Part shown: piece by piece, positions 49,825 through 51,267 of the stretch
Layout of the letters: each line of letters starts with the position of its first letter
Numbering within the stretch: position 1 is the stretch's first letter
From: Candidatus Marinacidobacterales bacterium
Lineage (GTDB): Bacteria; Acidobacteriota; Vicinamibacteria; Marinacidobacterales; DATDRI01
Length of the DNA: 64,000 bases
Assembly: GCA_965219415.1 (NCBI GenBank)
Contig: OZ244742.1
Span: forward strand, 71,082 to 135,081
Direction of reading: 5' to 3'
Program-made: the position numbers and the translations under genes
The notes under the pieces: generated by a model
Seen by the model: only the letters and a program-made list of their open reading frames with translations
What the model was told of the DNA's origin: nothing
Databases searched by the model: none

Positions 49825-51267
49825 ATGAGTGTCTTAGCTATAGAGCTCAACGACACCGGGATCGAAGCGGTGCGTGATTCCGATCCGGAAGCCGAGGTCA
49901 TTGCTGCCAGTCCTGGTGTCGTCGTGTTGGATGGAGAAACCCTACTCACCGGACGCAAGGCGGCGAGCCGCGCCCGGTTGAAGCCCCGGTGGGCCTACGA
50001 CCGATTTTGGGAAGAGCTGGATACCACACCGCTTCCTCGGCCGTTTCCGACAACCCTGCGTCGAGCCGATCTCGCTCACGCCCATCTAGAAGAAGTTTGG
50101 GAATCCACTCGAGAGCGAGCCGATGACGTAATGTTGGCAATTCCCGGATCCTTTTCACATGAACAGCTGGGGCTCGTCTTAGGAATCGCCCGCGCGTGCG
50201 GCATGCCGGTCGCGGGGATGATCGATTCTTCGGTCGCTTCGTCGACACTCGTCGGTCAAGAGTCCAGCTTGGCACCGGTAGCCGTTCACCTCGATCTGCA
50301 TCTGCATCGAACCGTGGCGACTAGAGTCGAGCGCAATCATGAAGTGAAGCGGGCACGGATCGAGGTAAACGACGGTGTCGGCCTAATGGAGCTGCTCGAT
50401 GCTTGGGTGAGACTCATCGCTCAGGTTTTTGTCCGCACCACTCGCTTCGACCCTCTCCATGGAGGCAAGAGCGAGCAAGCTCTCTACCTTCGTCTGCCGG
50501 TGTGGCTCGACGAGCTTCGACAGAAAGACGAAGCCACTCTCACCATGAAGGGCGCGGGGAAGAATCACTCCATCGAGATCACGCGCGAGCAGATCATTGC
50601 CTGCGCCCAACCCTTCTACGAAGTCTTCGCACAGCTGGCGAAGGCGTTGGAACCCGCCGGCCATTCGGCAACGCTGCTACTGCCGAAACGAATGACTGAG
50701 CTTCCCGGGCTCGAGGGCTTCCTGAGACTCGCGAACCCCGACCTGGTGGCTCTTCCAGGCGCAGCCGGCGCCAAGGGTGCCCTGAAGCTGGTAGGACATT
50801 TCCGTTCCGACAGAACTGGGGAGGAGCTACCTTTCGTCACCCAAATTGCGCTGAGCAGTGCATCTCCAGGCGGCCCAGAGTCCGAGGGCGGGACAGCGGC
50901 CCCTCCCGTCGAGGCTCCAGACGAAGAATCCAAAGTGCCAACCCACGTTCTATTTGAGGGACTCGCGCACCCCATCACGTCGGACCCTTTGGTCATCGGG
51001 TTAGCCGTGCCGGACGGAAGTCACGGCATCGACTTGGCCGAGCGAGGCGGGTCTTCCGCCGGTATTTCACGTTCCCACTGCAGTATCTATCGTGTCGAGG
51101 AACGAGTCTTGCTGGAGGATCACAGCAGCTACGGCTCCTTTCTCAACGACAAACGGATCGAAACGAAGGCGATTCTCGCAGCGAGAGATCGGGTGAGAAT
51201 CGGCACTCCCGGTGTCGAGCTGCACCTGATCGCCGTGGTGGATTCCGATGACGCGCCGCAGGATTAA
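49825..51267 (+). CDS. Operon gene 7: degenerate Hsp70/actin-like NBD fused to a C-terminal FHA domain (cytoplasmic)
   Basis: LAIELNDTG sits where DnaK has IGIDLGTTNS. VMLAIPGSFSHEQLGLVLGIARACGMPVAGMIDSSVASS resembles AVITVPAYFND.QR.A...AG..AGL.V.RIINEPTAAA. VHLDLHLHRT sits where DnaK has DLGGGTFD. FHA part ..ISRSHCSIYRVEERVLLEDHSSYGSFLNDKRI....ARDRVRIG. Confidence 0.8.
   Translation: MSVLAIELNDTGIEAVRDSDPEAEVIAASPGVVVLDGETLLTGRKAASRARLKPRWAYDRFWEELDTTPLPRPFPTTLRRADLAHAHLEEVWESTRERADDVMLAIPGSFSHEQLGLVLGIARACGMPVAGMIDSSVASSTLVGQESSLAPVAVHLDLHLHRTVATRVERNHEVKRARIEVNDGVGLMELLDAWVRLIAQVFVRTTRFDPLHGGKSEQALYLRLPVWLDELRQKDEATLTMKGAGKNHSIEITREQIIACAQPFYEVFAQLAKALEPAGHSATLLLPKRMTELPGLEGFLRLANPDLVALPGAAGAKGALKLVGHFRSDRTGEELPFVTQIALSSASPGGPESEGGTAAPPVEAPDEESKVPTHVLFEGLAHPITSDPLVIGLAVPDGSHGIDLAERGGSSAGISRSHCSIYRVEERVLLEDHSSYGSFLNDKRIETKAILAARDRVRIGTPGVELHLIAVVDSDDAPQD

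Follow-up and report, generated by a model that had tools for sequence, protein, structure and literature searches.

Yeast Ssz1, a member of the ribosome-associated complex, is an Hsp70 that has turned into a non-cycling regulatory subunit, with ATP bound but not hydrolysed. In the type VI secretion system of Pseudomonas aeruginosa, an envelope-spanning machine is switched by the PpkA/Fha1/PppA pathway, in which a bitopic Ser/Thr kinase that senses through its periplasmic region acts together with a scaffold protein, cytoplasmic and FHA-containing. The genes of this pathway sit inside the machine's own cluster, and it includes a PP2C phosphatase partner; Fha1 itself has a canonical FHA pocket and no Hsp70-like domain, and what is switched there is a contractile injection system where the present case has a TolQ-type motor. 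The gene considered here, g7, likewise lies with a kinase gene inside the cluster of a putative envelope machine. It is found in a stretch of 64,000 nucleotides (hereafter the window) from contig OZ244742.1 of a Candidatus Marinacidobacterales bacterium, and its product joins an Hsp70-like nucleotide-binding domain (NBD) to an FHA domain.

TolQ-like genes accompanied by paired "trans-pore-helix" (TPH) vWA genes, with no TolR/ExbD, have been proposed to form force transducers driven by the proton motive force (Mol Biol Evol 2025, PMC12204202). The g7 operon matches this motor class in genes g6, g8 and g9, which comprise a MotA/ExbB gene and two heterologous vWA genes with the helix Asp, again with no TolR/ExbD. 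The text of that study makes no mention of an Hsp70-like, FHA or kinase component; judged by its sequence, g7 is an unreported component of the TolQ/TPH-vWA system and its sole soluble cytoplasmic protein. We regard it as fairly probable that g7 is an Hsp70-derived, probably non-hydrolysing core subunit whose FHA domain docks under control of the kinase, so that g7 would connect a membrane kinase with a proton-driven envelope motor.

The open reading frame list and its translation give g7 as a complete coding sequence of 480 aa, running from ATG to TAA at 49825..51267 (all coordinates are those of the window, and all features lie on its + strand). Full-length homologues share its start Met, and the genome holds one copy. 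The ATG lies 5 nt past the g6 stop and the 3′ end overlaps the start of g8 by 20 nt, so that the gene is embedded in a tightly packed operon; these spacings indicate that it is coupled translationally to both neighbours. The strings on which the initial annotation relied are present in the translation: LAIELNDTG at aa 4–12, VMLAIPGSFSHEQ at aa 102–140, DLHLHRT at aa 157–163 and ISRSHCSI at aa 414–421. An NBD-like region (aa 1–345, 49825..50859) is followed by a low-complexity tether (aa 346–370, 50860..50934) and an FHA domain (aa 371–473, 50935..51243). The tether, of ~25 residues, is weakly conserved, gapped and of variable length in the family alignment, and is disordered in the AlphaFold2 model, with a predicted local distance difference test score (pLDDT) <50 over aa 345–363.

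The initial annotation had described the N-terminal region as collinear with the DnaK NBD. Conventional searches do not reveal this: aa 1–345 gave no match in Pfam (even at E 10), NCBIfam, PADLOC, or the PDB by phmmer, and a genome-wide search with PF00012 recovered three DnaK-type genes (771–887 bits) and MreB and missed g7. Structure prediction does reveal it. The AlphaFold2 model of g7, built on 41 homologues, has a mean pLDDT of 88.4 (~90 or higher over most of the N-terminal domain), and its N-terminal domain adopts the four-subdomain actin-like fold (IA/IB/IIA/IIB). Foldseek against the PDB returned at least 500 matches at E ≤ 0.001; the top rows are all Hsp70/Hsp110 (E 1e-18 to 1e-16), as are all of the ~45 best matches listed. 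NBD-only chains, including those of Thermus thermophilus DnaK and mortalin, superpose on the model with TM-scores of 0.70–0.73 and a root-mean-square deviation (rmsd) of 4.0–4.7 Å. When VIA-align was run exhaustively over 48,161 representative chains, six Hsp70/Hsp110 representatives ranked first (Z 28–30, 320–336 residues, rmsd 3.2–3.9 Å), the Hsp70-type top matches including Ssz1, Ssb1, BiP and Hsp110. The structure prediction thus came out Hsp70-like, and a non-Hsp70 fold was not found.

Other actin folds also align with the model, and this is the basis for an alternative in which the N-terminal domain would be cytoskeletal, polymerising like actin or MreB into filaments beneath the membrane complex. 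MreB, actin, ParM, MamK and FtsA align at Z 17–24 over 250–300 residues, with individual values of 24.2 for MreB, 22.8 for actin, ~20 for ParM and 17–18 for FtsA; PilM scores 15.4–15.7. The Hsp70 NBDs, however, score 4–6 Z higher and cover more residues. Profile comparison separates the two groups further: an 81-sequence family profile aligned by hhalign with the genome's three DnaKs at 85.9% probability (E 5e-6, 338 columns), whereas the same profile gave 0.4% with the genome's MreB. An earlier hhalign comparison with 41 members and default settings was weak (21% over 237 columns), and the match became convincing only with 81 sequences.

The profile alignment pairs aa 1–344 of g7 with DnaK residues 2–393 and includes the interdomain linker, where LPFVTQIAL of g7 (aa 335–343, 50827..50853) is paired with LLLLDVTPLSL of the genome's DnaK. 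This hydrophobic segment follows the pattern L-x-[LF]-V-[TY]-x-L-P, which is conserved over 80 species and retained in NBD-only homologues. In VIA-align the full-length Ssz1 chain reaches residue 342 of the g7 model, and NBD-only chains stop at 327. The presence of an Hsp70-type linker is a further point against filament formation by an actin-like protein, which we consider very improbable. Because the profile match is specific to DnaK and includes the conserved linker, and because Hsp70 NBDs take the top structural ranks, sequence and model together identify the g7 N-terminal domain as a derivative of Hsp70 specifically, and not as a generic actin-fold protein.

By fold and profile homology g7 is a member of the Hsp70 superfamily, yet it fails the sequence hallmarks of the Hsp70 family, namely the Pfam profile, the three glycine motifs, Lys70 and the substrate-binding domain. 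Neither the β-sandwich substrate-binding domain nor the helical lid of Hsp70 is present in g7, and the tether and FHA domain stand in their place. With the Hsp70/DnaK NBD (PF00012) it shares P107 as the proline of VPxxF, D157 as the Asp of phosphate-2, and an A-x-G-A pattern at connect-2, whereas the G-T-T, G-G-G-T and G-G motifs and Lys70 are all missing. In a Pfam scan the g7 operon also differed from Hsp70 systems in having no DnaJ/J-domain or GrpE/exchange-factor partner.

Motif states were counted in two sets, one of 41 close homologues and one of 80 species belonging to several phyla, with residue equivalences between g7 and DnaK taken from the profile alignment and approximate around gaps. 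The phosphate-1 hairpin (LAIELNDTG, 49834..49860), which replaces IGIDLGTTNS, reads E-L-N-D-[AT]-G across the family; it is two residues shorter than in DnaK, lacks G-T-T, and keeps E7 in 72/80, D10 in 80/80 and G12 in 71/80. The phosphate-2 hairpin (HLDLHLHR, aa 155–162, 50287..50310) replaces (V)YDLGGGT, and in the family D-L-H-L-H-R-x-V stands for D-x-G-G-G-T-x-D. Here D157 aligns with DnaK D194 and H159-L160-H161 with the three glycines; position 157 is D or E in 80/80, L160 and H161 are each found in 76/80, the consensus of the hairpin is H/E/Q - L - H - R/Q, and the position of the second Asp (D201) holds V or L. A Gly-rich phosphate-2 loop occurs in none of the members in either set. 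The adenosine motif has become [ST]-x-R-x-x-x-L-P-G, with no G-G and with the Pro in 77/80. The equivalent of DnaK Lys70, approximate since it lies in a gapped segment (position 59), is T in 26, S in 21, N in 21 and D in 11 of 80, and never K. D134 is conserved in 71/80 and the "proline switch" P107 in 80/80, and a family-specific motif, R-F-D-P-L-H...E-Q, has R207, D209, P210, E217 and Q218 in 80/80 each. The sequence alignments thus show that the altered loops are family-wide and not a local variant, and orthologues with canonical phosphate loops were not found. The claim of the initial annotation that both phosphate loops are altered therefore holds over 80 species, and extends to the adenosine motif and Lys70.

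Because the carboxylates and His161 are among the best-conserved residues of the family, conservation indicates that the cleft is not merely decayed and is under selection for something. The doubt that the initial annotation cast on ATP hydrolysis is reasonable given the lost loops, and from this we infer a pseudo-ATPase, with the qualification that the cleft has not simply degenerated. The opposite possibility is that g7 is an active ASKHA enzyme, hydrolysing nucleotide or catalysing some other reaction, in which His159, His161, Arg162 and the carboxylates bind phosphate in place of the backbone amides of the glycine loops. Its cycle would drive the membrane complex through assembly or remodelling, with the FHA domain selecting a phosphorylated client as the substrate-binding domain of Hsp70 selects an unfolded peptide. 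That the cleft positions (D10, 157, H161 and R207/D209/P210/E217/Q218) are the best conserved in the family would suit such an enzyme, as would the invariant proline switch, the retained linker, and an order of NBD, linker and β-sandwich peptide binder that parallels Hsp70. All three glycine motifs that wrap the nucleotide in characterised Hsp70, actin and sugar-kinase folds are nevertheless missing, the Lys70 position is T/S/N/D and that of D201 V/L, and the operon supplies no J-domain or exchange-factor partner. Moreover, the best structural match, Ssz1, is a regulatory subunit that binds ATP and does not hydrolyse it. We therefore think catalysis unlikely, and prefer a subunit that is Hsp70-derived and probably does not hydrolyse nucleotide.

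The second part of g7, proposed in the initial annotation as a C-terminal FHA domain with an SR.H core, is recognised by Pfam PF00498 with E 4.5e-10 and 40.3 bits (cut-off 20.7) at aa 411–460. The match covers profile positions 15–67 only, and ranks 13th of the 14 FHA matches in the genome. The N-terminal third of the profile is unaligned because the pocket region deviates, having lost Gly-Arg and gained extra loop residues. A domain-only model (aa 371–473, 28 homologues, pLDDT 87.5) forms the eleven-strand FHA β-sandwich and aligns with EmbR, CT664, Mek1, FhaA, Rv0020c, DgcB and GarA at Z 12.8–13.2 (87–93 residues, 1.9–2.6 Å), whereas the phospho-independent YscD domain reaches Z 8.7. In the 41 close homologues the S-R-x-H phosphate-pocket motif (51067..51078) is kept as S415 in 41/41, R416 in 39/41 and H418 in 40/41, with N441 in 40/41; D432, S434 and S/T438 are also retained. 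Gly392 of the canonical Gly-Arg pair is kept, but residue 393 is L in g7 and V/L/W/S/T/I in the family, Arg being seen only in P0041 and L074 and residues outside this list in at most 2/41 and 4/80; in the other FHA domains of the same genome Gly-Arg is present in 12/12. The loop insertion after Gly392 carries R400 in 33/41, which might stand in for the missing arginine, and the Asn of N-G-T is Y/F/H in the g7 family. By profile and predicted fold the FHA domain is genuine, with a phosphate pocket that is non-standard in sequence; phosphothreonine binding is plausible on this evidence, not assured.

The operon kinase is encoded by g3 (43848..46181), a bitopic Ser/Thr kinase (Pkinase E 2.9e-29) with a periplasmic TPR-containing region and a hydrophobic segment at aa 314–332. 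It had been placed next to g7 in the initial annotation; it lies in fact three genes upstream in the same operon, and the direct neighbours of g7 are g6 and the vWA gene g8. Its relation to the FHA domain was followed in the best 80 of 409 loci, which were scored for an operon kinase domain with HRD, for the FHA pocket (Ser415, His418) and, in a later screen, for a kinase-dependent cytoplasmic Ser/Thr; kinase activity was judged by a BLAST match and an HRD regular expression. Kinase domain and FHA pocket are both present in 42 loci and both absent in 19, with three intact FHA domains lacking a recognisable kinase and one locus of the reverse type. Put differently, the pocket is intact in 42/43 HRD+ loci and decayed or deleted in 19/22 loci that have lost the kinase; invariance of S415 (the phosphate-contacting Ser), H418, D432, S434 and S/T438 coincides exactly with a catalytically intact kinase. 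Pocket decay or domain deletion occurred in ~5–6 separate kinase-less lineages. In L065, the locus with a kinase and no FHA pocket, the kinase open reading frame lies outside the usual position.

The screen for a kinase-dependent Ser/Thr picked a single cytoplasmic threonine, Thr103 of g4 (codon checked, 46484..46486). It lies in K-T-D-P-P-V (aa 102–108), a motif that reads K-T-[DAE]-P-P-[VI] in the family and is located ~45 residues before the g4 membrane helix; its co-variation marks it as a candidate phospho-acceptor and FHA ligand. Thr occupies position 103 in 98% of the loci with a kinase but in 18% of those without, and T-x-P-P is found in 40/41 scorable HRD+ loci and, at the same position, in 2/21 kinase-less or degenerate loci. 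Against the FHA pocket, the motif gives 42 loci with both, 19 with neither, and 3 and 1 that are mixed; all three features occur together in 40 loci, none in 16, and 6 are mixed. On the NBD tree each trait changes ~6–7 times, and the traits share the five or six lineages in which they were lost, namely a Sulfomarinibacteraceae clade, L068/L071, L086, L074/L091, a Myxococcota/Desulfobacterota/Bacteroidota clade and L044. This joint presence and loss of kinase, TxPP threonine and FHA pocket is new here, and is strong descriptive evidence from sequence, not statistical proof. The juxtamembrane region of the kinase, previously suggested as the FHA ligand, appears less likely because it has no conserved Thr: in g3 aa ~285–313 (window ~44700–44790) a [VI]-x-[LV]-x-P-P-P-[RK]-[VI] motif is conserved across phyla. 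By the same sequence comparison g4 Thr103 is the likelier ligand.

Several observations weigh against a kinase-controlled, non-hydrolysing g7. The co-variation rests on ~6–7 changes in a tree whose deep branches are poorly supported, and a phylogenetically controlled sign test was not significant for either kinase–FHA or T103–FHA, with only 1–2 usable contrasts. L049 and L050 have an intact FHA domain with no operon kinase and no TxPP, and a phosphatase gene was not found in or beside the operon. The Gly-Arg arginine is absent from the g7 FHA domain, and its possible substitute R400 is His in g7 itself. An active enzyme of unusual chemistry would likewise account for the strict conservation of His161 and the carboxylates in the cleft. 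Finally, fusions of g7 with g6, g4 or g8 were not found by an NBD search among proteins of 841–2400 aa, although this is weak evidence.

Some of these points would be expected if the FHA domain were a phosphorylation-independent docking module, as in YscD/PrgH-type proteins and GltG, with the kinase acting on other targets and its co-occurrence with the pocket due to shared ancestry. The missing arginine, lost family-wide, and the Y/F/H at the NGT Asn agree with this explanation, as do the L049 and L050 loci and the outcome of the controlled test; Pfam also matches the cytoplasmic domain of YscD below its cut-off (E 1.8e-5). Moreover, the GltG FHA of the Agl-Glt gliding machine in Myxococcus is predicted to contact the pentamer of AglR (TolQ/MotA-like) at the cytoplasmic face of a 5:2 motor, and this structural prediction makes contact between an FHA domain and a TolQ/MotA-type pentamer plausible (PMC11761067). 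A docking module of this kind is harder to reconcile with pocket residues that are invariant where the kinase is intact and decay or disappear in ~5–6 kinase-less lineages, with the same pattern at the g4 Thr, and with a predicted fold closer to phosphothreonine-binding bacterial FHA domains (Z 13) than to YscD (Z 8.7). We judge phosphorylation-independent docking to be improbable. Of the phosphothreonine-recruited scaffold at a channel complex envisaged in the initial annotation, a kinase-linked adaptor is thus backed by co-variation, whereas phosphothreonine binding is less secure in the absence of Gly-Arg.

The two parts of g7 differ in how readily they are lost. The FHA domain is present in 71/80 homologues, and seven complete ones are NBD-only, ending 6–41 residues after the linker; it has been lost in ~1/10 lineages, with one NBD-only genome in the phylum of the window. 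From this distribution the NBD, which is present throughout, is the core part of g7 and the FHA domain an accessory regulatory module. NBD-only genes, which end a few residues past the linker, were noted at L014:9258-10271 (genome G022), L042, L059, L063, L068, L069, L086 and L089. Where these loci could be scored, the g3 homologue retains its periplasmic part and lacks either the kinase domain or its HRD motif. In G022 the N-terminus of g3 has no BLAST similarity to the kinase, and g7 has Ala at the phosphate-2 Asp.

The nine-gene operon spans 41612 to 53355 and encodes, in order, a lipoprotein (g1), a secreted protein (g2), the kinase (g3), a PEGA/FGE protein (g4), a small protein (g5), a MotA/ExbB-like channel subunit (g6), g7, a vWA protein (g8) and a second vWA protein (g9). 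Four other genomes of the phylum retain the order g1–g9, as does essentially every one of the 80 loci that is long enough. The channel subunit g6 (49022..49819) belongs to the MotA/TolQ/ExbB type (PF01618, E 7e-14; TolQ/ExbB NCBIfam models sub-threshold) and is 64–80% identical across classes. It precedes g7 in 77/80 loci, adjoins it in 2 more, and is missing only from one contig-truncated locus; across the 80 loci examined, g7 stands between the channel gene and the vWA genes. g8 and g9 (51248..53355) encode paralogous bitopic coiled-coil proteins with 24–30% identity, with Pfam vWA hits in g8 and an Asp in the N-terminal membrane helix, where SFLD..CGFG is conserved in 76 and 47 homologues. 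At the cytoplasmic edge of the pore helix, the residue at g8 Ser10 (51275–51277) remains Ser in 98% of loci with a kinase, whereas 14/21 loci without one have Gly; this could reflect a second target of the kinase or simply mark a lineage.

g4 (46178..48586) is bitopic, with a cytoplasmic N-terminal region and, from its Pfam matches, five PEGA domains and an FGE-sulfatase-like domain; its hydrophobic segment at aa 151–169 is preceded by an Arg-rich stretch. A sub-threshold FHA match (E 0.027, 15.3 bits against 20.7) lies at g4 aa 40–77 (window 46295–46408). The segment S-x-W-L-x-D-G-D-x-x-x-x-G is retained in kinase-less loci too. If it does have an FHA-like fold, analogy with the membrane-proximal FHA of GltG makes it probably phospho-independent. 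BLAST recovers g5 (48591–49007) from only a minority of the 80 loci, so that it is weakly conserved or optional. In two Myxococcota metagenome-assembled genomes (MAGs; L061 and L063) the genes form two separate units in divergent placement, g6-g7-g8-g9 and g1-g2-g3-g4. This suggests two functional sub-modules, one a motor that includes the Hsp70-like protein, the other a part for sensing and the envelope.

Relatives of g7 are numerous. A word-indexed search found at least 496, nearly all of ~460–490 aa and annotated at most as "FHA domain-containing protein", and an exhaustive search with an NBD-only profile yielded 2047 cluster representatives, of which 1015 score E ≤ 1e-30. These fall into two length classes, ~450–490 and ~340–360 aa, and the neighbours in the ESM Atlas are unnamed clusters of 335–353 aa, followed by lower-scoring Hsp70 clusters. 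Taking one genome per species, the 409 loci occur in phyla and classes that include Acidobacteriota, Thermoanaerobaculia, Gammaproteobacteria, Myxococcota and Desulfobacterota. The closest relatives, at 80%, are in Marinacidobacterales/Vicinamibacteria MAGs, while distribution in the phylum of the window is patchy (6/201 sampled genomes). Cultured Gammaproteobacteria that carry the operon include Steroidobacter gossypii S1-65, S. agaridevorans SA29-B and Peristeroidobacter agariperforans KA5-B. The family tree mixes phyla overall. At L080, L084, L087 and L101 near-identical g7 genes (end branches 0.004–0.04) occur in MAGs labelled Acidobacteriota, Gammaproteobacteria and Desulfobacteraceae, which points to a binning or labelling error or to very recent transfer.

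How might such a protein act on the motor? The engine would be the TolQ/ExbB-like channel g6, with the Asp-bearing helices of g8 and g9 inserted in the place of TolR/ExbD. The NBD has arisen from an Hsp70 NBD and linker that lost the glycine loops and Lys70, kept the carboxylates and gained a phosphate-2 hairpin lined by His and Arg. Having abandoned the chaperone ATPase cycle, it may serve as a ligand-binding or structural subunit at the cytoplasmic face of the motor, docked either on the g6 pentamer or on g4 at its cytoplasmic domain. The FHA domain, in the place of the Hsp70 substrate-binding domain and on a flexible tether, would be a removable regulatory arm. In the proposed sequence of events the bitopic kinase g3 would be activated via its periplasmic region and would phosphorylate g4 at Thr103 in its cytoplasmic linker, and the FHA domain of g7 would bind the resulting phosphothreonine. 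This second attachment would tether or reposition the Hsp70-like domain and thereby switch motor assembly or activity. Four elements of this scheme are ones that we infer: the lack of hydrolysis, docking on g6, phosphorylation at T103 and the regulatory outcome. Fold, homology, motif states, operon conservation and co-variation are what the sequence and model comparisons show.

An extension of this mechanism would reuse Hsp70-style allostery, the FHA domain talking via the linker to a His/Arg cleft that binds a nucleotide or phosphorylated ligand, so that g7, under control of the kinase, would work as the clutch or brake of a 5:2 TolQ/vWA motor driven by protons. We hold this extension to be doubtful; if true, no earlier regulator of a rotary ion motor would derive from a chaperone, and no earlier ASKHA phosphate site would be built without glycine loops.

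The g7 family forms a large unnamed branch of the Hsp70 superfamily, with ~2000 clusters at 50% identity and ~400 species, that Pfam and NCBIfam do not see. With its glycine loops replaced and its cleft still constrained, it offers a natural test of how an Hsp70/actin cleft works without those loops, in a protein that appears to have swapped the Hsp70 substrate-binding domain for a phosphopeptide reader. It may also be the missing cytoplasmic component of a recently proposed class of TolQ-type motors, which have a pair of vWA proteins as rotor axle and no known function. The kinase–Thr103–FHA module, apparently gained and lost as a unit, would be a concrete and testable regulatory circuit, and the operon is present in cultured strains.

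Other assignments were considered. A MoxR-vWA "ternary" conflict system, which has a MoxR AAA+ ATPase paired with a vWA protein at its core, was rejected, since a Pfam scan of the operon found no AAA+/MoxR gene; the Hsp70-containing systems described with that group are GTPase- or tubulin-centred (eLife 2020, PMC7159879), and neither is found in the operon. PADLOC-DB gave no defence-model match for g7, generic kinase-domain matches only for the kinase, and a weak ZorA match for g6 (E 4e-4). There is also a likeness to PilM, FtsA and GspL, which, like g7, are ASKHA-fold cytoplasmic proteins of trans-envelope machines with a probably structural role, and PilM (in pilM-pilN-pilO) is, like g7, encoded directly upstream of two paralogous bitopic coiled-coil proteins. 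Their structural match to g7 is, however, far weaker (PilM Z 15.4–15.7, FtsA 17–18). Capture of the N-terminal tails of g8 and g9 in the manner of PilM–PilN is unsupported, as these short, basic tails contain no PilN-like peptide conserved upstream of the membrane helix. GltG differs in carrying its FHA within a TonB/TolA-like bitopic protein, with no Hsp70-like domain and no kinase dependence described (PMC11761067), and its arrangement is resembled more by the membrane-proximal FHA-like region of g4 than by g7.

PpkA/Fha1/PppA differs in having a phosphatase partner, whereas none lies near the g7 operon. Ssz1 (PDB 5mb9, 6sr6, 4gni) is the best structural match of g7 in both searches (Foldseek E 1.3e-18; VIA-align Z 30.1 over 336 residues, rmsd 3.3 Å), and the alignment runs into the linker that follows the NBD. 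Identity is nonetheless only 14–16%, and Ssz1 is eukaryotic, ribosome-associated and keeps a truncated substrate-binding domain; according to the title of 4gni it binds ATP-Mg, via canonical loops of the kind that are gone in g7. By analogy, g7 is most like two known systems combined, an atypical, non-cycling Hsp70 such as Ssz1 and an FHA scaffold that serves threonine phosphorylation, as in the PpkA/Fha1 pathway.

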